64,000 nt of DNA from a virus (Duplodnaviria > Heunggongvirae > Uroviricota > Caudoviricetes). A program made the position numbers and the translations under genes. Below the pieces are notes generated by a model. That model was not told the origin of the DNA and made no database searches. It was given only the letters and a program-made list of their open reading frames with translations. Of the stretch, positions 3,792 through 54,874 are shown in pieces; the first letter of the stretch is position 1; each line of letters opens with the position of its first letter. The DNA is taken from IMG/VR virus record IMGVR_UViG_3300042901_002340, one strand, 5' to 3'.

Positions 3792-4060
3792 GGTCGGTCG
3801 TATTTATGAGTGAGATTTAATTAGAGTAAACATGAAAATTACCCATAAAATAACTAATCCTACCTTTGCAACATTAGCCGCTTGCTGAACTGATTTTTTT
3901 TCCATAATGTGATTTGTTTTAATTACATGGCAAATATAGGGTATAATAGTTAATCAACAACGATATAAAACGTTAAAGTTTTCTCACGGTGGAAAGCAAT
4001 AGACAGATCCAAAAACAATTGCTTTCTTCATCCTGAATCAGGAATCATGCCATGTCGGTA

Positions 4061-4077
4061 CACCGTCGGCAACGGTG
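4061..4077. promoter_or_regulatory. Motif A palindrome, copy 4
   Basis: caccgtcggcaacggtg; terminator at 4107-4138. Confidence 0.8.
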
Positions 4078-4342
4078 GGATCATGGACAGGCCTAATTCA
4101 TGCCACAAAAAAAGGGTGACTCTCAAATGTCACCCTTTAGCTATAGCCTGACCAAAGCAGGAAGTCCTGGCTATAAAAATCTCATACCTGTCTTCAGAAT
4201 TTCTTCTCTTAATTCTGGTGTTATCTTTTCTTCCATGCCTTCTCCCATTATCACCGTTGGACCTTGCAAGCTGATAGTGTATTCCATATCATCGAAGCCC
4301 GCGGAGTTTAGCAGTCTTCTTGTCTTGCTTATGATTTCATGC

Positions 4343-4585: not shown

Positions 4586-4705
4586 AATGATTTGTTTTAA
4601 TTACATGGCAAATATAAGGCATAATAGTAGATTACGAACGATATAAAACGTTAAAATTTCAGGTATCCATCGGAATTTTTTCTTCCCGTCAGGCTCCCGC
4701 CAGCC

Positions 4706-4722
4706 CACCTCGGCCGGCGGTG
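4706..4722. promoter_or_regulatory. Motif A palindrome, copy 5 (one mismatch)
   Basis: cacctcggccggcggtg. Confidence 0.65.
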
Positions 4723-4744
4723 AACATGTATCCAGACATGTGAT

Positions 4745-5048: not shown

Positions 5049-5128
5049 ACCAGCGGTGCGGCGGATACATCTCTTTGTGCATCCCCATAATCTTTCTTCA
5101 TCCTTTTGACATCTTCCTACATCTTTTC

Positions 5129-5145
5129 CACCGTCGACAACGGTG
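5129..5145. promoter_or_regulatory. Motif A palindrome, copy 6
   Basis: caccgtcgacaacggtg; terminator at 5177-5203. Confidence 0.8.
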
Positions 5146-5230
5146 TGATCACGAGGCCTCCGAGACATTTGGTCACAAAAAAGGCTTTCTCGAAAGAAAG
5201 CCTGATTCTGAATTAAAACCTAACCTATTA

Positions 5231-6169: not shown

Positions 6170-6248
6170 GGAGCAAATATAAGACATCATTTTTAAATAC
6201 CAATGATAAATCCGCACATTTTCAGAATAAATCCGCCTACATCCTGCC

Positions 6249-6265
6249 CACCGTCGCCGACGGTG
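6249..6265. promoter_or_regulatory. Motif A palindrome, copy 7 (perfect 8-1-8)
   Basis: caccgtcgccgacggtg; terminator at 6310-6341. Confidence 0.85.
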
Positions 6266-6510
6266 AACCATGCATTCCCATGCATTTATATGTCAAAATC
6301 ATGACACACAAAAAAGGCTTTCTTTATTATAAGAAAGCCTCTTTCAAAAAAAGAAGTGTGTGTAATTAAAACCTCTTAAGTCGTAGTGAATCTTTGATGA
6401 ATTCGAAGTCCGCTCCAGTTACACCGTCGTCGCCAAACTCATCTGCGATTAGGTCGTGTAACTCGTCCACGGTTTTTACTCCTCTGTCCTTTGCTTTTGC
6501 TTTGATTCTT

Positions 6511-6726: not shown

Positions 6727-6796
6727 GTCCTATTATTTATAAAGCAAATATAAGAAATCCTTTTTATATACGCACGAGGCCAAACGTTAAAGTTCT

Positions 6797-7180: not shown

Positions 7181-7247
7181 GGTGTGATTGATTTTAATTA
7201 CATTGCTAATATAAGAAATCCTTTTTATATCCCAATGATTTAAAACG

Positions 7248-7884
7248 TTAAAGTTTTCCCATTTTATGAAGGAATGTTTCTTCCCTCATTGCACATATTC
7301 CTCTTCTCTTACACATTCTTGTGTATTCCTGATAGGTTATCGAATCCTTCTCCGCAAGTTCGTTTGCCATGTCTATGTTCAGAGCGATGTGGTGGGGTTC
7401 ACCGTGGAGTGTTTCTCTATGCCAAGCTATTATATTTTCCATTATGAATTTATTTTATCACATATTAAATGCCCAATGAACACAGAAGCAAGCGAGCATA
7501 TCATTATCCATCCTCTGGTATAAGCAAATCCCCAATTAAAAAGTATTAGAGATATGTGCGGTAGTGTGAGGATACAAAACACCGCTGCTGTTATGGCCAT
7601 TGCTAGGAATAGACCCAGAATCGGATCCTTTCTTTTATTCGTTCCCATAATTATTCCTCTTCCGTTGGTTCATAATCTTCGTCTATGACCTCATCCACCT
7701 CGATAATGACGTTGTCATGGTCTCCTTGCTCTCTCATCTCATCATCTTCCTCCTCAGTGAATCCAATTTTCTTTAGAGCTGCAAAGTAAGCTTTGTCTCT
7801 GTCCGTTGCTCTAACGAACACCACTGTTGGTGAATCCCAGTCATCTCTACTGGTGAACATCACGCAAAATAATATTTTTTCCAT
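7248..7884 (-). other. three-gene module of small hypothetical ORFs (7248..7442, 7442..7648 membrane, 7651..7884 acidic)
   Basis: Abutting ORFs under one promoter; last stop inside the GTTA junction. Confidence 0.65.
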
Positions 7885-8143: not shown

Positions 8144-8236
8144 GGAATTTGGTTTTAATTATAAAGCAAATATAATAAATCCTTATCAAACACCAAGATA
8201 ATCGGCCGATTATTTTTTCACATATAAAAGCATATA

Positions 8237-8253
8237 CACCGTCGGCCGAGGTG
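8237..8253. promoter_or_regulatory. Motif A palindrome, copy 8 (one mismatch)
   Basis: caccgtcggccgaggtg; terminator at 8289-8313. Confidence 0.7.
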
Positions 8254-8331
8254 TACCTCATGGCCCGTCCTAGGGATTCTTTGCCCATAAAAAAAGAGGC
8301 CGAAGCCTCTTTTAATACCGTGGACTACTGA

Positions 8332-9422: not shown

Positions 9423-9571
9423 ATGATTTTAATTACAGAGCAAATATACGGAATAGGTTTTAAATACAAACGATCAAAAACGTTAAAGTTTTAGCCACGG
9501 TGTTTGCCATGGGACAGGCATAAAAAGAATCCATATGAAAAATAAAGGCATGCATGATGCATCATCCGGAA

Positions 9572-9588
9572 CACCGTTGTCGACGGTG
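9572..9588. promoter_or_regulatory. Motif A palindrome, copy 9
   Basis: caccgttgtcgacggtg; terminator at 9615-9639. Confidence 0.8.
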
Positions 9589-9678
9589 TGGATGTGCAGG
9601 CATGATGCACATCCAAAAAAAAAGAGGCCGAAGCCTCTTAAAGTTGTGTGTCTGGTTTATAAGCTAACCAAGGAAAGC

Positions 9679-49792: not shown

Positions 49793-50473
49793 ATGGAAAA
49801 TTTAAAATCTTTTGGTGAATTTATTAACGAGGCTACTCTTAATCCGGCTTTAGCTTTTGGTAATGCGTTTAACGCCAAACCTGAAGTGGATAGTGATATT
49901 GAGGATTCATCAGATATGGATGCTCCTGACACCAACGACCAGGTAACTCTTAAAAGTTTAGGTTTAACTAACACTTCTTCCGGAAGCATATTTACACCGT
50001 TGGATCTTAAAACCGCTTCTGGATTCAAAACTTATTCAGATATTGCTCAGAAGTGGATCAATAAAACAAACCCATCATCCCCAATAAAAGGTGAAATGCT
50101 GGCCAACGGTGCGAAAAAAGCCCTACTAGACCATGGATCTTATATCCCTCCACAACTTGCACTTGCCCAGCTAACAATGGAAGGTGGACTAAGTAAGGAT
50201 CCTAAGGTTAAACCAATTAGAACAAAAAATCCATTCAATGTTGGTAACGTTGATAGTGGAGCAGTTGTTAAACATAGCAATTGGCAATCTGGTATCGACG
50301 CATACTTTAAAACTATGGCCAAGAATTATGTGGTTCCATCACAGAATAAAACTGCTACAGGTCTGCTTAATAGGTTTGTCAATACTAAAAATCAGAGATA
50401 TGCTTCAGCTTCAAATTACGAGAAATCGATAACGTCAACAATAAATAGTATAAATAAAACACTAACCGCATAA
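49793..50473 (+). CDS. glucosaminidase-like muralytic protein with MENLKSFGEFINE N-terminus
   Basis: LALAQLTMEGG...NPFNVG...W..GI.AY; GATATATAG promoter. Confidence 0.7.
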   Translation: MENLKSFGEFINEATLNPALAFGNAFNAKPEVDSDIEDSSDMDAPDTNDQVTLKSLGLTNTSSGSIFTPLDLKTASGFKTYSDIAQKWINKTNPSSPIKGEMLANGAKKALLDHGSYIPPQLALAQLTMEGGLSKDPKVKPIRTKNPFNVGNVDSGAVVKHSNWQSGIDAYFKTMAKNYVVPSQNKTATGLLNRFVNTKNQRYASASNYEKSITSTINSINKTLTA

Positions 50474-50501
50474 AAAAGTCCGATAGAAATATCGGGCTTT
50501 T
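50471..50501. terminator. bidirectional terminator
   Basis: aaaaaagtccgata-gaaa-tatcgggctttt. Confidence 0.8.
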
Positions 50502-50684
50502 TAGTTTTGCGTGATGCTTCCAAATAGAGTTATTCGCATATTAGTTAGCAGAAATTAAATTATGTCACACTTCATTTTTGTTAAATAAAATCAGAATATA
50601 GTGACCTAAATATATAAACTTTTCTTCACAAATCTTTATAATTTTTTGGTTTTTCATATTATAATTAATTGGAAATTAGAGTTT

Positions 50685-50724
50685 TATAAAAAGGTATTTA
50701 TATATACTAGTTACCTGCAAGCAC
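50685..50724 (+). other. attI/attG-like entry site of the cassette array (GTT at 50710)
   Basis: GTTACCTGCAAGCAC complements the left end of attC1 at 13/15, but no hairpin arm lies to its left. Confidence 0.65.
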
Positions 50725-50787
50725 TACTGACCTGCATCAAATAAAGTTCCGTGAGAAAAACTTTTATTAAAATTTCCCACCGCACAA

Positions 50788-51153
50788 TTAATCAGGAACT
50801 TCATCTCTTAAATTGTGTGTTCTTTGACCTTGCAATAGTTCCGCTACTTCGTAATCAATATATATTTTTGTGTGTGGATTATGGTTTCTAAACAAATACC
50901 TTATCGCAGGTTCAACAGCAGAATCAAAATCATCTCCGTTGTATGTTTTTGAAAATTTAGAATAGGGAAAGTGAAATTTAACTTTGTCCTCAATCCATTT
51001 TTCAATTTCATCAAACTTTTCAATTTCAAATATTTCCACTTCCTTAAAACCATTCATTCGGTCTCCAATTTTTATCTGTATTCCAGAATCCCACATCCAA
51101 TCTATTAGGATGTTAATTTCACTTTCATAAAGTGCTTTTAATAGTGTTTTCAT
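50788..51153 (-). CDS. cassette 1 hypothetical protein
   Basis: 121 aa inside the 50710-51412 segment. Confidence 0.7.
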   Translation of the reverse strand: MKTLLKALYESEINILIDWMWDSGIQIKIGDRMNGFKEVEIFEIEKFDEIEKWIEDKVKFHFPYSKFSKTYNGDDFDSAVEPAIRYLFRNHNPHTKIYIDYEVAELLQGQRTHNLRDEVPD

Positions 51154-51155
51154 AA

Positions 51156-51374
51156 TTATGTTTTTATTGGTTTAAAATCTGTTATTTTATCATTGTGGTA
51201 TTGCTCTAAAAATTCAGCCACAAATGATTTCTTGTCAAAAGATGCAAATGACACGCCTGTTTTTCTGTCAGATAAAACAATTCGTTTGCTTTTGATGTTT
51301 CTTCTGATTTCAATTTCTAAGTATTCTTTTTTCCCTTCGCTCATTTTAATAAAAGTTTTTTGTTCGTGTTCCAA
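51156..51374 (-). CDS. cassette 1 hypothetical protein (TTG start)
   Basis: 72 aa; in-frame TAG 13 nt upstream limits the start. Confidence 0.5.
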   Translation of the reverse strand: MEHEQKTFIKMSEGKKEYLEIEIRRNIKSKRIVLSDRKTGVSFASFDKKSFVAEFLEQYHNDKITDFKPIKT

Positions 51375-51405
51375 ATTAAGTTCCTGCTAAATTTACCGTG
51401 CCAGC

Positions 51406-51537
51406 AGGTAACACACGTTTGGCAAAAGTGGCGGTGCAGTACTCCGCTCGACATTTACTGCAAGGTTCAACATTCGTTCTACGCATTGGAATTTGTGGTT
51501 AAAATCGCCACCTTCGCCAAGCGTGGGAACGTTAGCA
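51406..51537 (+). mobile_element. attC-like site 1 (132 bp)
   Basis: aggTAACacacgtttggcaaaagtggcg ... cgccaccttcgccaagcgtgggaacGTTAgca. Confidence 0.88.
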
Positions 51538-51972
51538 GTAACTTTTGAAAAGCGTAACGCAAATCAGAATAATTAATGCTATAAAATTTATCCAATTAAA
51601 AAATCTTACATTTTGATACCAAGCGGAATCAACTATAAAATTTCTTGCACCATCAAAATACATCAAAGGAATAAAAGTTATCAATCTAAATGGAATCCAT
51701 AATAAATTGAAAATTATACACCAAATTGTTATTTGTAATCCTGTAATTGGTAGTTTAATTCCTTTATGTAATTGCCTAAATGAAAATGTTGTAAAGTCAA
51801 AAAATAAATATACATAATGACCTTTTTTAATATTTTTACCTATTCTGAAAAATCCGTTATGAAAACCAAAATAATGTTTGTCATAATTAGAAAATTTACG
51901 AACCTTAAAGAATAAAGCTACTGCTAACAGCATTTTGTGGCAATTGCGGGGTTTAGGTTTATTTTCAAGCAT
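51532..51972 (-). CDS. cassette 2 membrane protein
   Basis: 146 aa; ATG inside the attC2 loop; TAA stop inside the GTTA of attC1. Confidence 0.75.
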   Translation of the reverse strand: MLENKPKPRNCHKMLLAVALFFKVRKFSNYDKHYFGFHNGFFRIGKNIKKGHYVYLFFDFTTFSFRQLHKGIKLPITGLQITIWCIIFNLLWIPFRLITFIPLMYFDGARNFIVDSAWYQNVRFFNWINFIALIILICVTLFKSYC

Positions 51973-52057
51973 TGTTTTTTAATTTAAAGATTAGTCTATT
52001 CTTGTGTGGTCTAGGTTAATTCGTCCGCAACTGACCACAAGATGCGAAACGTTATAA
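51922..52057 (+). mobile_element. attC-like site 2 (136 bp)
   Basis: tgcTAACagcattttgtggcaattgcgg ... ccgcaactgaccacaagatgcgaaacGTTAtaa. Confidence 0.88.
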
Positions 52058-52063
52058 GTAACT

Positions 52064-52483
52064 TTACTCAGCGTTGCGTTTAAGAAATCTATTAAATTTA
52101 CTATCATTGTTTTTGGTTGGTAATTTTGTTAAGTATTCAATCAAAAAACTATTTTTTGCATGTTTATGATTTATCGGAAATCCACTTTCTTCATCAAATT
52201 CTTTTGCAGTTTCCCAAAATAAATGCTCTTTAAAACTGTTAATAACACTATGAGAATCTCCCTCTCCCCAATAGTCTTGTGTCCATTCGTGTAATTCAGG
52301 TAAACATTCTCTAAAAGCGTATTTATTTTTACCTTTTCTTCTTCTTTGTCTTTTGCCATAAAGAAGATACTCCCAACCTAAATGTTTTAAATTAATTCTT
52401 AATATTTCAAAAATTCCTTTTTTATACATTAGCTTTAAAATCCTTTTTTCATCTTTAAGATGTTTTCTGATATATTTTTTCAT
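52064..52483 (-). CDS. cassette 3 basic hypothetical protein
   Basis: 139 aa filling the segment between attC2 and attC3. Confidence 0.75.
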   Translation of the reverse strand: MKKYIRKHLKDEKRILKLMYKKGIFEILRINLKHLGWEYLLYGKRQRRRKGKNKYAFRECLPELHEWTQDYWGEGDSHSVINSFKEHLFWETAKEFDEESGFPINHKHAKNSFLIEYLTKLPTKNNDSKFNRFLKRNAE

Positions 52484-52498
52484 AACTAAAAAAGCTAC

Positions 52499-52631
52499 TT
52501 ATAACAACTACTACAAGCAATAGCTAGAATAGTCATTGAATTAATAATTAATTTTTGTTTGTTGTCATTCGGTCAAACTCCGATGTTTTGGCTTGTTTGT
52601 CCGCTACTGCCTGTAGTAGCAAACGTTATAG
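52499..52631 (+). mobile_element. attC-like site 3 (133 bp)
   Basis: ttaTAACaactactacaagcaatagc ... gctactgcctgtagtagcaaacGTTAtag. Confidence 0.88.
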
Positions 52632-52646
52632 CACATTAAAACGATG

Positions 52647-52779
52647 CTATAACAAAGTATAAAAGCAATAACCTAACTTGCGTGGCATCTCTATACTCTC
52701 GTATATATTTTTTTCCTTTATCCACTCTCGAAGCTACATTTCTAAGGTCTGTTACTGCTTATACACTCAACCGTTAGCG
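52647..52779 (+). mobile_element. attC-like site 4 (133 bp)
   Basis: ctaTAACaaagtataaaagcaataac ... gttactgcttatacactcaaccGTTAgcg. Confidence 0.85.
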
Positions 52780-52785
52780 GAAATG

Positions 52786-52995
52786 CTATGGACACCTAAA
52801 TCCATTGTGAACTATTTCCCACTCCCAATATTTTGAGTTGTTTTTTCTAACTCTATTTTCTGACCAACCTTGCTTATACCAAACAAACTGATAAGGATTA
52901 GACTTACGAGAAGCACTTCCGCTAACATCGGTTTGTTGCAAGCGGGGCTTCTGTGGTTTAATGAAGTGTAGTAATTCTAATAATCTTCGTATCAT
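52786..52995 (-). CDS. cassette 5 small protein
   Basis: 69 aa; ATG in the attC5 loop; attC arm encodes KPRLQQTDVSGS. Confidence 0.65.
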   Translation of the reverse strand: MIRRLLELLHFIKPQKPRLQQTDVSGSASRKSNPYQFVWYKQGWSENRVRKNNSKYWEWEIVHNGFRCP

Positions 52996-53053
52996 AATTT
53001 AGAGTTTTGTGTTTCTAATTCCCCGCCTGACAACAAGCCGAGAAACGTTATGG
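52920..53053 (+). mobile_element. attC-like site 5 (134 bp)
   Basis: cgcTAACatcggtttgttgcaagcgggg ... ccccgcctgacaacaagccgagaaacGTTAtgg. Confidence 0.9.
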
Positions 53054-53233
53054 TTAATTTAACCACTCAATACCACTATGAATTCGTGAAACTGTAACAT
53101 CATCATCTAACATAATTAAGTCAGTATAATTGAAATAATCCGTGACTGTATATTTAATACCATTGTATTTCACTTTTCTACCAATTAAACTAACCATAAC
53201 ATCAGATATATTCAATTTTTTATTCTCTTCCAT
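53054..53233 (-). CDS. cassette 6 small protein (59 aa, not in the ORF track)
   Basis: MEENKKLNISDVMVSLIGRKVKYNG...GIEWLN; ATG in the attC6 loop. Confidence 0.7.
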   Translation of the reverse strand: MEENKKLNISDVMVSLIGRKVKYNGIKYTVTDYFNYTDLIMLDDDVTVSRIHSGIEWLN

Positions 53234-53316
53234 GAATTTATTATTTTAGATTACAAAGGTAAACATTTATTTTCAATTTTCAAAATAAAACTGAATATAT
53301 CTGAGTATCGTTATTC
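53194..53316 (+). mobile_element. attC-like site 6 (123 bp), carries an internal promoter
   Basis: ccaTAACatcagatatattca ... tgaatatatctgagtatcGTTAttc. Confidence 0.82.
53254..53284 (-). promoter_or_regulatory. Bacteroidota-type promoter inside the attC6 loop
   Basis: TTTG, 19-nt spacer, TACCTTTG, then the ATG at 53233. Confidence 0.75.
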
Positions 53317-53712
53317 TCCTGTTTCTTCCTGGAATTCTTGAGCCATCCAATCGACAAAATTTGGTTCAGAAATCTCCTCAATCTCCCCCATCTCAAATTC
53401 TATTTCTTCTTCCCTACGGTTTACCCCAGCATTGAATGAGAACTCCATGTCCTCTCTAGTAAATCCTCCAAGTTTTCTAATCAACTCTTCCCTCTGTTTA
53501 GAGTTAATAGTTAATACTGCACAGGATCCTTGTTCATATTCACCTGCAGCGTTCTCCAGTATGTAGTCTGCATATTCACCAAGGTCTTCAAAGTCTTCTT
53601 CATCAAACTCCTCGTCATTCTCTGAGATTTTAATTGTTTCAACTCTAACCTCTTCGTTGAGAGATCCTCTTACCGCTATGAGGATGTGCTCCTCTTCCTG
53701 TACTTTTGCCAT
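53311..53712 (-). CDS. acidic hypothetical protein
   Basis: 133 aa; TAA stop inside the GTTA of attC6. Confidence 0.75.
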   Translation of the reverse strand: MAKVQEEEHILIAVRGSLNEEVRVETIKISENDEEFDEEDFEDLGEYADYILENAAGEYEQGSCAVLTINSKQREELIRKLGGFTREDMEFSFNAGVNRREEEIEFEMGEIEEISEPNFVDWMAQEFQEETGE

Positions 53713-54034: not shown

Positions 54035-54874
54035 ATGGAGAGATTAAAAAGTTTTAATGAATTTATAAATGAGGATGAATTCAAAATAGATGATCCTTCA
54101 AAAGCAGGTACACAGTTGGTTAATACTATTTCCCAGAATGTACCAGCTCATGAAGTCGGTAACAATAGTGGTGCTGTTGTCAATAAGTTTCAAAGATCTG
54201 TTGGTATATCCGATGGACAACCTTGGTGTATGGCTTTCATATACTATATCTTTGAAGAATTCAGTAAAAAATTGGGAATTACTAATCCGGTATATAAAAC
54301 TGGATCAACGTTGGACGAATGGGAAAAAACAAAAGGTAAAAAGATAACGGCGGAACAAGCAAAATCCAATTTTTCCTTGGTTAAACCCGGACAAATAATG
54401 ATAGCAAAAAGGGAAGGCGGCGGACATGCTGGTATAGTTACTAGTGTTGATTATAATGGGAAGAAATACACAACTATTGAAGGTAATGTTGGAATAGGTG
54501 GAGGAAAACAAGGGGTTGGATCATATAATAGGTCAATCCTAGTAGAGGGGCTTATCGGCTTTATTGATTATTTTCCGGATAGAAGTCCTGAATTTGATAG
54601 TAGTTTTATCTCAGCAATGAAGGGTGCAAAGCTAACTGATGCGAGCAGAAATGCAGTGGTTAGATCCCTACCTGGTGACGATATTATCGGTGGTGACTCT
54701 GCAGCTAGTTCTGCTGAGGAAGATAAAAAAAATACTTCCGGTGGACTTCTTGGTAAGATAGTTAGTGGGGCTAGAAAATTTACAAGTATAGGTAGGAAGG
54801 AAGAGGACGGTGGTGATGATAGCATAAGTGCAAAGGATGCAGTTGAAGCATTTGGTAGAGTAACGGGAAAATAA
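54035..54874 (+). CDS. CHAP-domain amidase/peptidase with MERLKSFNEFINE N-terminus
   Basis: PWCMAF...GHAGIV...TIEGN catalytic motifs; GATATATAG promoter; terminator at 54893-54921. Confidence 0.85.
   Translation: MERLKSFNEFINEDEFKIDDPSKAGTQLVNTISQNVPAHEVGNNSGAVVNKFQRSVGISDGQPWCMAFIYYIFEEFSKKLGITNPVYKTGSTLDEWEKTKGKKITAEQAKSNFSLVKPGQIMIAKREGGGHAGIVTSVDYNGKKYTTIEGNVGIGGGKQGVGSYNRSILVEGLIGFIDYFPDRSPEFDSSFISAMKGAKLTDASRNAVVRSLPGDDIIGGDSAASSAEEDKKNTSGGLLGKIVSGARKFTSIGRKEEDGGDDSISAKDAVEAFGRVTGK

Follow-up and report, generated by a model that had tools for sequence, protein, structure and literature searches.

Does a recombination site also serve as the place where translation of its gene begins? 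This question is raised by a locus of a giant Bacteroidota phage (430-kb genome), from which a stretch of 64,000 nt, here called the window, was analyzed. A textbook integron cassette consists of a promoterless gene followed by its attC, and attC is a DNA site only. The phage carries six integron-type cassettes in mirror image. Their six attC-type hairpins (E1 to E6), approximately 117-130 nt long, lie at window positions 51409-53313 and read TAACG-stem-loop-stem-TGTTA on the minus strand. When the whole 430-kb genome was scanned for stable stems between TAAC and GTTA, these six were the top matches, and no comparable hairpin was detected outside the array. Abundant AAACGTTA words between 1 and 10 kb of the window resembled extra sites, but they were part of a separate promoter-like repeat.

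The hairpins share a common architecture, i.e. TAAC-GTTTC-4 bp-mismatch-6 bp-bulged T-9 bp-loop-...-T-GTTA. All six displayed the TAAC and GTTA boxes, a spacer of 1 nt on one side versus 5 nt on the other, the mismatch, and a loop of 60-75 nt; the bulged base was seen in E2 and E5. Across 23 aligned sites, TAACG and TGTTA were invariant. Judged by the features that define attC (an imperfect palindrome of about 57-141 nt with AAC/GTT boxes, inner stems, unpaired spacer, extrahelical base(s), and variable loop), all six have the anatomy of attC sites. RNAalifold on a MAFFT alignment of the 23 hairpins recovered just 9 pairs because loops and bulges misalign; folding was instead assessed via arm-against-arm duplex energies and single folds. 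The RNA stem folds had z-values of -3 to -4.2 and placed the ATG in the open loop.

Read along the minus strand, on which all features of the array lie, the array opens with E6 (53197-53313; TAAC at 53313-53310, GTTA at 53200-53197). The TAA of this TAAC doubles as the stop codon of a resident gene for a 133-aa acidic protein (53311-53712), whose 3′ end is the point of insertion. Cassette gene A (53054-53233, 59 aa) starts at an ATG in the E6 loop (53233), 33 nt upstream of the G of GTTA. Its ORF begins MEENKKLNISDVMVS, its leader MEENKKLNISDV stems from loop, arm, and GTT, and a further ATG is found at +3 after the G. E5 (52923-53050) has its loop ATG at 52995, 69 nt upstream of the G of GTTA. 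Gene B (52786-52995, 69 aa) starts there; it begins MIRRLLELLHFIKPQKPRLQQTDVSGS and contains the conserved core NPYQ..WYKQGWSE..YWEWEIVHNGF. Its in-frame starts are limited to the loop ATG (-69) and, within the arm, one TTG (-15), and a second, overlapping ORF of 38 codons runs through the same cassette from the ATG of GATGTTA. E4 (52650-52776) is followed by a gene-less body of 21 nt (52629-52649). The loop of E3 (52502-52628) has an ATG at 52536; the ORF starting there is 13 codons long, runs across the arm, and ends at 52495. Gene C (52064-52483, 139 aa) has an ATG of its own, which follows 11 nt later and 22 nt past the E3 GTTA. E2 (51925-52054) contains the start of gene D (51532-51972, 146 aa, membrane protein-like, beginning MLENKPKPRNCHKMLLAVA) at 51972, 44 nt upstream of the G of GTTA; an alternative ATG lies 5 nt before this G, and the stop codon is the TAA of the E1 TAAC. 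Finally, E1 (51409-51534) carries a loop ORF of 37 codons from 51454, whose TGA overlaps (ATGA) the ATG of the next gene at 51344. The last cassette body (50710-51408) holds two genes (51156-51374 and 50788-51153) and terminates in GCAGGTAAC (50718-50710), complementary to GTTACCTGC just after E1. Searches of the four cassette proteins A to D against Pfam and PHROGs gave no matches. The initial annotation had placed the starts at 51972, 52995, and 53233 inside the loops of E2, E5, and E6 (its attC2, attC5, and attC6) and had these ORFs read through the arm; both coordinates and hairpins were confirmed, and the ORFs cross the GTTA box as well.

A sister phage (L029) lacks 50509-53307, i.e. the entire array together with an AT-rich, non-coding stretch of about 200 nt (50509-50709), and is about 80% identical at the nucleotide level on either flank. 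The upstream junction of this absence is the TAA|C of E6, and in the sister phage the terminator directly follows the homologue of the 133-aa resident gene. The array is therefore an insertion between the stop codon of the resident gene and the two-way intrinsic terminator of its transcription unit (50473-50502), the sole terminator found in the region. The phage has no recombinase gene of its own: its 430-kb genome gave no match to PF00589 and none in a tblastn search with a recombinase from a related bacterial array (L276).

For comparison, hairpins of the same family were collected, comprising 157 unique viral hairpins from 43 loci and 43 bacterial hairpins; of the pattern hits that public collections yielded, about half had no hairpin, were matches by chance, and were dropped. 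Two lines of evidence concern the cassettes. First, they bear the circular-cassette signature, in which the 10 nt after the GTTA of one hairpin are complementary to the 10 nt before the TAAC of the next. In 125 viral units, a mean of 7.0 of the 10 positions paired (mode 9) versus 3.4 in random pairs, and within the window the signature was found in three instances (I7, 16 nt at 94%; I13, 15 nt at 93%; and I3). Second, whole cassettes were gained, lost, and reordered with breakpoints in the conserved TAACG box. Two loci (L004 and L006) differ by exactly one hairpin and its downstream body, and E5 together with gene B matches another locus (L007) as a single block that has other neighbours there. 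Where homologous bodies occurred at different loci, the upstream hairpin was kept (92-100% identity) and the downstream one was not (20-61%) in four of seven pairs. Judging from these alignments, hairpin and downstream gene are one mobile unit, and the start signals therefore travel with the cassette.

The same hairpin family is present in chromosomes of Chitinophagaceae and other Bacteroidota, where genes are oriented as in classical integrons. Of 35 viral arrays, 32 have their ORFs on the TAACG strand of the hairpin, i.e. opposite to the bacterial arrangement; these arrays and that of the window depart from the classical polarity, in which the gene lies on the top strand and precedes its attC. 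Near one bacterial array (L276), a gene for an Xer/IntI-like recombinase lies 3.3 kb away, in the orientation of the cassettes, and a gene of this kind also forms the end of some phage arrays. Recombinases adjoining related arrays scored up to 178 bits against the integron-integrase model TIGR02249 (cut-off 265), with model positions ~178-240 skipped, and four Bacteroidota genomes with such arrays contained no integron-integrase match above the cut-off. In the phage, no complete integron (attI, Pc, and an adjacent intI, i.e. a tyrosine recombinase gene with the IntI-specific insertion) was found.

In IntI-attC structures of classical attC sites, bulge and spacer occupy the half opposite to the cleavage site. 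Here, the bulged base and the long spacer were on the same hairpin half as the inferred cleavage site, an arrangement that counts against the model. This asymmetry had initially been read as making the minus strand the classical top strand, with each gene followed by its attC; array comparisons spoke against this reading, since it is the downstream gene that the hairpin accompanies and since polarity is reversed in bacterial arrays.

Start codons inside the loops were far more frequent than composition predicts. A loop ATG with a frame open past GTTA was present in 99 of the 157 unique viral hairpins, a 2.5-fold enrichment over shuffled loops (mean 39.0, sd 5.4, maximum 58 in 500 shuffles). 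For the antisense strand of these hairpins, the count was 27 versus 99 for the sense strand (Fisher p = 6 × 10−17), and among bacterial hairpins of the family only 14 of 43 had such an ATG (p = 5 × 10−4 versus viral). The main ORF started inside the loop in 44 of 113 viral units. In 13 further units the loop ORF ended -10 to +25 nt from the main ATG (a raw count), and 38 of the 113 had no loop ORF crossing the site; the feature is therefore common, not obligatory. Around 68 loop ATGs, A occupied position -13 in 81%, -12 in 88%, and -3 in 60% of cases, versus 45% A in loops overall. The ATGs of genes A, B, and D have A at both -12 and -13. In Flavobacterium johnsoniae, initiation is determined by an A-rich, unstructured region with A at -12, -13, -3, and -6, and no Shine-Dalgarno (SD) sequence is used (PMC6847099). 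The loop ATGs, unpaired in RNA folds, have the properties of such a Bacteroidota translation initiation region, and their context resembles the initiation sites of the phage's own genes.

Could the true starts nevertheless lie at or just after GTTA, at an abutting NTG or the ATG at +3, with the open loop frames being a by-product of stop-poor, GC-rich arms? The ATGs at +3 in gene A and at -5 in gene D make shorter products possible, the base before TGTTA yields ATG, GTG, or TTG in 16 of the 23 aligned sites, and the units devoid of a crossing loop ORF fit this reading as well. The homologues point in a different direction. Thirteen homologues of gene A were found, with varied open leaders; the database start of one (P0043) is the internal +3 ATG, but another (P0041) lacks this Met altogether. 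Many members of the gene D family likewise have no Met before LAVAL (e.g. KPLLAVAL and KRVLAVAF). Gene B has no ATG, GTG, or TTG past the arm, and its family displays at least four different leaders, each with an in-frame loop ATG and no alternative start. One copy of gene B (L279:301-477) is hairpin-less, with TAAC joined straight to the loop and both arms gone; it retains ATGATACGAAGATTATTA and MIRRLL and begins at the loop-derived ATG. Moreover, starts near the box would be buried in a stable stem, and stop-poor arms leave both the excess of loop ATGs and their A-12/A-13 signature to be explained. Initiation at the box is thus unlikely, and we favour initiation in the loop: these sequence patterns support real-looking start codons and leaders in the attC loops, and a reading of arm and GTTA box as protein. 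Codon-position differences in the loop-coded leader of gene B (81, 28, and 56 at positions 1, 2, and 3) displayed no clear third-position excess.

The leaders fall into more than one type. At least five predicted proteins with no relation to each other share the attC5-type leader, and in each the junction falls directly behind GTT, the Val codon. The L-x-x-x-D-V-(S/M)-x-S N-terminus, which the initial annotation ascribed to many hypothetical proteins of Bacteroidota phages and suggested, if that held, as a searchable marker, does exist; it is just one leader type, present in 6 of 68 leaders, and half of the leaders have the box in the other frame (..L-L-P/G-A-V..). As a marker, such a peptide holds modestly, given the attC5-type leader and its unrelated proteins.

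A further proposal of the initial annotation was that each cassette is transcribed from a promoter in its own attC loop and so does not depend on an upstream, Pc-like promoter. The Bacteroidota promoter-like motif on which it was based, TTTG-N19-TACCTTTG, is indeed present in the E6 loop (53254-53284, minus strand), 21 nt upstream of the loop ATG, and three gene-proximal sites in other parts of the window belong to the same motif type. However, the window contained 4 matches to the two-box motif versus 2.9 expected, and 34 of 100 shuffles did equally well. No promoter motif was found in E1-E5, TAnnTTTG was rare on the sense strand of viral loops (3 of 157), and full two-box matches inside a hairpin were absent from this comparison. 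A scan for sigma-70-type promoters gave no excess either (19 found versus 19.3 expected). Since the array lies within the stop-to-terminator interval of the resident gene, with no internal terminator, read-through is a simpler source of mRNA than own promoters; judging from this layout, read-through from the resident operon is the most likely source, and transcription from each loop is quite improbable. Of the expression signals ascribed to every attC, start codons and leaders were thus borne out by enrichment, context, and homologues, whereas the promoter was confined to attC6 and to a chance-level count, and independence from a Pc-like promoter was not upheld.

An Rfam scan of 50400-53500 gave no relevant family; the attC family is absent from Rfam. 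A role of the hairpins at the RNA level or in housekeeping (as terminators, processing sites, or REP-like repeats), with a coincidental cassette layout, is very improbable: strong intergenic stems could act on RNA and the genome has no recombinase gene, but whole-cassette gains and losses break in TAACG, the flanking inverted-repeat signature recurs in the 125 units, the same sites form classical bacterial arrays (one beside an Xer/IntI-like recombinase) and phage arrays that end at one, and no T-run was seen after the hairpin stems in a terminator scan of the region.

We consider it probable that the six hairpins are integron-type attC sites and that the cassettes are mirror images of classical ones, with the loop as a portable translation initiation region. 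Under this model, attC sites of a family known from Bacteroidota chromosomes would form a six-cassette array between the resident stop codon and terminator, with the hairpin first and the gene second on the strand that corresponds to the bacterial bottom strand. Crossover would take place where the hairpin has its 5′ foot (TAA|CG), probably catalyzed by an Xer/IntI-like tyrosine recombinase that comes from the host or from another phage. The variable loop would act as the initiation region (A-rich, unpaired, A at -12/-13, ATG). Ribosomes loading there would melt the 3′ arm, and arm and GTTA box would be decoded as a leader of 12-25 residues. In genes A, B, and D, leader and cassette protein would form a fusion; for the cassettes of E3 and E1, the leader would instead be a short ORF upstream of the gene, ending at the gene's start codon or slightly ahead of it. 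The cassette ORF would extend to the end of the cassette, often stopping at the TAA of the next TAA|C. With ribosome entry, start codon, and a decoded arm in the hairpin, recombination and translation signals would therefore be combined in one element of ~126 nt.

Several known systems resemble parts of this arrangement. Clusters of attC without integrase (CALINs) are already published from virulent and uncharacterized phages, with an example from a Bacteroidota (Polaribacter) phage, and such sites were recombined by IntI1 (Qi, Rajabal, Ghaly, Tetu, Gillings 2023, PMC9892861). Like these, the present array is a row of attC-type sites with no intI gene nearby. The CALIN cassettes mostly have the classical direction, and the paper is silent on start codons or translation inside attC (PMC9892861); in the window, genes are all on the other strand, attC precedes and travels with the gene, and the loop is the putative initiation region. 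As in sedentary chromosomal integrons (e.g. the ~125-nt repeats of Vibrio cholerae), sites of ~126 nt belong to few types across many unrelated cassettes, possess AAC/GTT boxes, and have first cassette bases complementary to the bases before the AAC. As in 'reverse' integrons, in which intI is co-oriented with the cassettes, the L276 recombinase gene is co-oriented. In contrast to sedentary integrons, (i) the R-box complementarity runs ~9 nt beyond TAAC/GTTA; (ii) the spacer is strongly asymmetric (1 nt versus 5 nt); (iii) the recombinases nearby are Xer-like, with scores under the cut-off of the IntI model; and (iv) instead of a long imperfect stem, phages have an A-rich, unstructured loop.

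Translation across a site has a parallel in attI1 of class 1 integrons with its ORF-11 and ORF-18, where a short ORF with its own initiation region is read across the site and drives translation of the adjacent cassette via coupling or fusion (PMC8876359). The upstream ORFs of E1 and E3 resemble this layout and may act in a similar way. ORF-11 belongs to a single attI and serves the first cassette only, whereas the predicted initiation region here is found in every attC, is mobile with the cassette, usually leads to an in-frame fusion with the cassette protein, and is of the SD-less, A-rich Bacteroidota type. PeSLs are promoter-terminator motifs that are exchanged via homologous recombination. 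Like the PeSL modules of T4-type phages (PMC2839356, PMC4122927), the hairpins are repeated stem-loops with putative expression signals that flank small accessory genes in variable regions of large phages and contribute to their shuffling; unlike them, they have AAC/GTT boxes, membership in a bacterial attC family, one defined breakpoint, and translation signals, and no general promoter. In the literature searched, no published description was found of a mirror arrangement in which the site is translated.

There is perhaps an even chance that Bacteroidota phages keep their own mirror-image integron system, a separate cassette pool in which attC is a portable translation initiation module and for which some phages carry an Xer-like recombinase. 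If so, captured genes would arrive translation-ready in an SD-less host, equipped with a site-encoded leader. This would explain how very small accessory genes are swapped between phages with immediate expression in non-Shine-Dalgarno hosts. Gene callers and integron finders would have to expect genes that start inside attC sites, and the site-encoded leaders (e.g. MIRRLLELLHLIKPQKPRLQQTDV and ..ETPTFGNVLLPAVP) may serve as handles for a large hidden pool of phage cassettes, with host-takeover or anti-defence genes probably among its contents. The hairpin-less copy of gene B would offer a glimpse of attC gain or loss at the 5′ end of a gene. Together with the strand split between bacteria and phages within one attC family, such arm-less copies may provide a new angle on the origin of integron cassettes.

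The window corresponds to the minus strand of positions 104150-168149 of a 430,120-bp record that has direct terminal repeats and is rated complete (phage GC content, 35%). A-rich gene starts lacking an SD sequence, the occurrence of TTTG/TAnnTTTG before several genes, and a hairpin family common to the phage and Chitinophagaceae genomes point to a probable Bacteroidota host. Six attC-type hairpins (E1-E6, corresponding to attC1-attC6 of the initial annotation) span 51409-53313. On the minus strand, their 5′ half is organized as 5′-TAAC-G(TTTC)-4 bp-mismatch-6 bp-(bulged T)-9 bp, followed by an AT-rich loop of 60-75 nt and a 3′ half of 9 bp-6 bp-mismatch-4 bp-T-GTTA-3′. When the whole genome was scanned for TAAC...GTTA with a stable closing stem, E1-E6 ranked at the top and no comparable hit appeared anywhere else. 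The minus strand holds every gene between the hairpins, i.e. genes A (59 aa), B (69 aa), C (139 aa), and D (146 aa), as well as two further genes after E1; only 21 nt lie between E4 and E3. Cassette B also contains an overlapping 38-codon ORF (52812-52928, minus strand), whose ATG lies within GATGTTA (Leu frame of the box) and whose peptide product (MLAEVLLVSLILISLFGI...) is hydrophobic. In the database protein P0026, a frameshift fuses the B leader to this overlapping frame.

The initial annotation proposed that the ORFs starting at 51972 (D), 52995 (B), and 53233 (A) begin inside attC loops and read through the recombination arm. The three ATGs indeed fall within the loops of E2, E5, and E6, at distances of 44, 69, and 33 nt, respectively, from the downstream G of GTTA; all three ORFs are open across the 3′ arm and the box, and the peptides had been quoted correctly. 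Relatives were collected from viral contigs and Bacteroidota genomes by exact-pattern scans built from the hairpin arms; about half of the matches occurred by chance, without a hairpin, and were excluded. A loop ATG with a frame open past GTTA was detected in 99 of 157 unique viral hairpins from 43 loci, compared with a mean of 39.0 (sd 5.4, maximum 58) in 500 shuffles of the loops, 27 of 157 on the antisense strand (p = 6 × 10−17), and 14 of 43 bacterial sites of the same family (p = 5 × 10−4). For 44 of 113 viral units, the longest ORF begins in the loop, and 13 more have a loop ORF ending between -10 and +25 nt from the main ATG; a third (38 of 113) have no such loop ORF. The loop-start observation is real and general.

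The sequence context was analyzed for 68 loop ATGs heading ORFs that extend 40 codons or more beyond the GTTA box. Adenine occupies 81% of positions -13, 88% of positions -12, and 60% of positions -3, against 45% in the loops overall; all three loop ATGs of the window have A at -12 and -13. Long genes of this phage display the same A-rich pattern at their starts, and A-12, A-13, A-3, and A-6 are measured positive determinants in Flavobacterium johnsoniae (PMC6847099). RNA folding gave strong stems (z -3.0 to -4.2) and open loops. We also noted a motif, AA(A/C)(C/T)T(T)(T)AA(A/T), in 60 of the 157 viral loops in sense and 7 in antisense orientation, mostly 10-12 nt before the ATG; window examples on the minus strand are 51985-51995 and 53000-53012. 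A similar AAACTAAA is present in the bacterial loops, and the motif may either belong to the initiation region or bind a protein.

Homologues of the cassette genes share cores behind varying leaders. In the gene B family, a conserved core (NPYQLIWYKQGWSENRVRKNNSKYWEWEIVHNGF) follows four or more distinct leaders (MIRRLLELL.., MDKSKIEVQKLND.., MNEEQRIRMKQ.., and MENKDKTPNE...), each type having an in-frame loop ATG and no other start codon. Copies of gene B with different arms show compensating changes (GGCGGGG/CCCCGC, GGTGCGG/CCGCAC, and GGCTGGG/CCCAGC), encoding PRLQQTDV, PHLPQTNV, and PSFCQTPV, respectively, with the frame open throughout. In the B leader, statistics by codon position over the loop-coded stretch were ambiguous. 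For gene A, 13 homologues have leaders of 12-25 residues that differ in sequence and are all open. Alternative ATGs occur near the box in genes A and D; a gene A homologue (P0041) has no Met at +3, and most gene D homologues have none beside LAVAL; hairpin-less relatives of D start just before the core. An arm-less gene B copy (L279:301-477) still starts ATGATACGAAGATTATTA, giving MIRRLL. At this locus (L279:270-480), AATAAC is joined directly to a loop-like AAAAGATTGAAAAATT-ATG, and the 10 codons for the 3′ arm and box are missing; the copy represents either a clean loss of both arms or a pre-cassette form of the gene.

An E5-type leader heads five otherwise unrelated predicted proteins (P0027, P0028, P0029, P0061, and P0063) that diverge directly after the Val codon GTT. 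Of the 68 leaders, 31 use GTT (Val) from the box and 34 use TTA (Leu). The suggested marker peptide L-x-x-x-D-V-(S/M)-x-S does exist, but in 6 of the 68 leaders only; another common type is ..ETPTFGNVLLPAVP. Judged from the sequences compared, the proposed reading is well supported: the start codon and leader would lie inside the site, the arm would be translated, and these signals would move with the cassette.

Array comparisons indicate what constitutes a unit. Two of the loci, L004 and L006, differ solely by a single hairpin and the body following it, each junction falling within TAACG. E5 and gene B form a single 295-nt block that is 92% identical in a third locus, L007, where the neighbours differ. 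Among seven homologous-body pairs from different loci, the upstream hairpin is kept (92-100% identity) and the downstream hairpin is not (20-61%) in four; one keeps both hairpins, one is ambiguous, and one behaves the opposite way. For the array of the window to consist entirely of whole units, each unit has to be taken as a hairpin with its downstream body. Because the hairpin moves with the downstream body, the phage cassette is an attC followed by its gene, with a predicted crossover at TAA|CG. This crossover would lie on the same hairpin side, beside the long spacer, as the G|TTA of bacterial arrays; the gene alone is inverted.

The bacterial sites, from genomes including Chitinophaga, Ferruginibacter, Flavisolibacter, Taibaiella, and Parafilimonas, form classical arrays, with a site after each gene on the strand bearing TAAC-A...C-GTTA. 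In 32 of 35 viral-contig arrays, the genes are on the opposite strand (TAACG...TGTTA), as in the window. In one complete chromosome (L276), the first site lies 3.3 kb from the gene of a Xer/IntI-like tyrosine recombinase (371 aa), which scores 211 bits with NF040815 and 178 bits with the integron-integrase model, below the cut-off of that model. No tyrosine recombinase was found in the genome of this phage. At their downstream end, four viral arrays have an Xer-like recombinase gene that shares 32-37% identity with its L276 counterpart and is co-oriented with the cassette genes (L144:4690-5460, L148:1357-2133, L121:3201-3914, and L098:7887-8600).

Within the array, the bases after each GTTA are complementary to those before the next TAAC (plus strand, GTTATGGTTAATTTAA with TTAAACTAACCATAAC and GTTAGCGGAAATGCT with AGCACTTCCGCTAAC; inverted repeats I7 and I13), the hallmark of units once closed as circles at that box. 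Over 125 viral units, the 10 nt after one GTTA and the 10 nt before the next TAAC pair at 7.0 of 10 positions (mode 9), compared with 3.4 for random pairs. Both in these units and in I7 and I13, complementarity beyond TAAC/GTTA peaks at 9/10 and never reaches 10/10; this peak suggests one conserved mismatch in an extended R box. In 76 of 96 units, no more than 30 nt separate the end of the main ORF from the next TAAC; 22 of these 76 use the TAA of TAA|C as stop codon, as do gene D and the resident 133-aa gene.

A sister phage, L029 (record length, 434.5 kb), has the hairpin terminator immediately behind its 133-aa gene. Since L029 lacks window 50509-53307 while both flanks are ~80% identical, the array is an insertion. 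Homology stops at GAATAA|CGATAC, the TAA|C of E6; the resident gene 53311..53712 terminates at this same TAA. At the other end of the array, the last cassette closes with GCAGGTAA|C (50718-50710), the pairing partner of GTTACCTGC after E1. Between this TAA|C at 50710 and the resident terminator (50473-50502, the sole terminator-like site in the region) lie ~200 nt of AT-rich non-coding sequence (50509-50709), missing in the sister phage and without any hairpin. Possibly, this segment is a remnant of an attI-like entry site, because related phage arrays have the Xer-like recombinase gene at that end.

Two plus-strand cell-wall hydrolase genes, one glucosaminidase-like and one with a CHAP domain, flank the array region (49793-50473 and 54035-54874); they are among the few plus-strand genes there and have a common N-terminus, ME(N/R)LKSF(G/N)EFINE. 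Repeats of ~60 nt occur at about 45.4, 48.0, 49.7, 54.0, and 55.8 kb and match many places in the sister phage. A further intergenic repeat family consists of a GC-rich palindrome, (A/C)CACCGTCGNCNACGGTG(T/G)G, with CACAAAAAAA and a GC-stem terminator ~40 nt on (~805-830, 2003-2025, 4058-4080, 4703-4725, 5128-5150, 6248-6270, 8233-8255, and 9573-9595).

The proposed promoter element TTTG-19 nt-TACCTTTG is present in E6 (53254-53284, minus strand). The broader idea of a promoter within each attC was not supported: the two-box motif occurs in E6 alone, the window contains 4 matches versus 2.9 expected, and sense-strand TAnnTTTG was found in 3 of 157 viral loops. As the array sits within the interval from the resident stop codon to the resident terminator, read-through from the operon starting upstream of 53931 would be the simpler model of its transcription, to which the E6 motif may add a start point. 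Elsewhere in the window, an ~80-nt module is repeated upstream of minus-strand genes (1281-1325, 1595-1639, 1900-1934, 3930-3981, 4600-4653, 6750-6789, 7200-7256, and 9441-9491). It reads AAACTTTAACGTTT(T/A)A(T/A)ATCG...(TTTG)...TAnnTTTG...TAATTAAAA and then ATG on the minus strand, explains 15 exact AAACGTTA words on a single strand only, and resembles a phage-specific promoter that has a conserved box upstream.

Phage-borne attC clusters without integrase have been published, and IntI1 recombines some of these sites (PMC9892861). Cassette-borne promoters are also known, and ORF-11/ORF-18 of attI1 are translated across the recombination site, coupled to the first cassette (PMC8876359). PeSL stem-loop modules mediate gene shuffling in T4-type phages (PMC2839356, PMC4122927). 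A full-text literature search found no description of (i) systematically inverted phage cassettes, (ii) an initiation region and start codon inside an attC loop, or (iii) translated attC arms. The array belongs with the known integron cassettes and CALINs in phages, as a variant of these.
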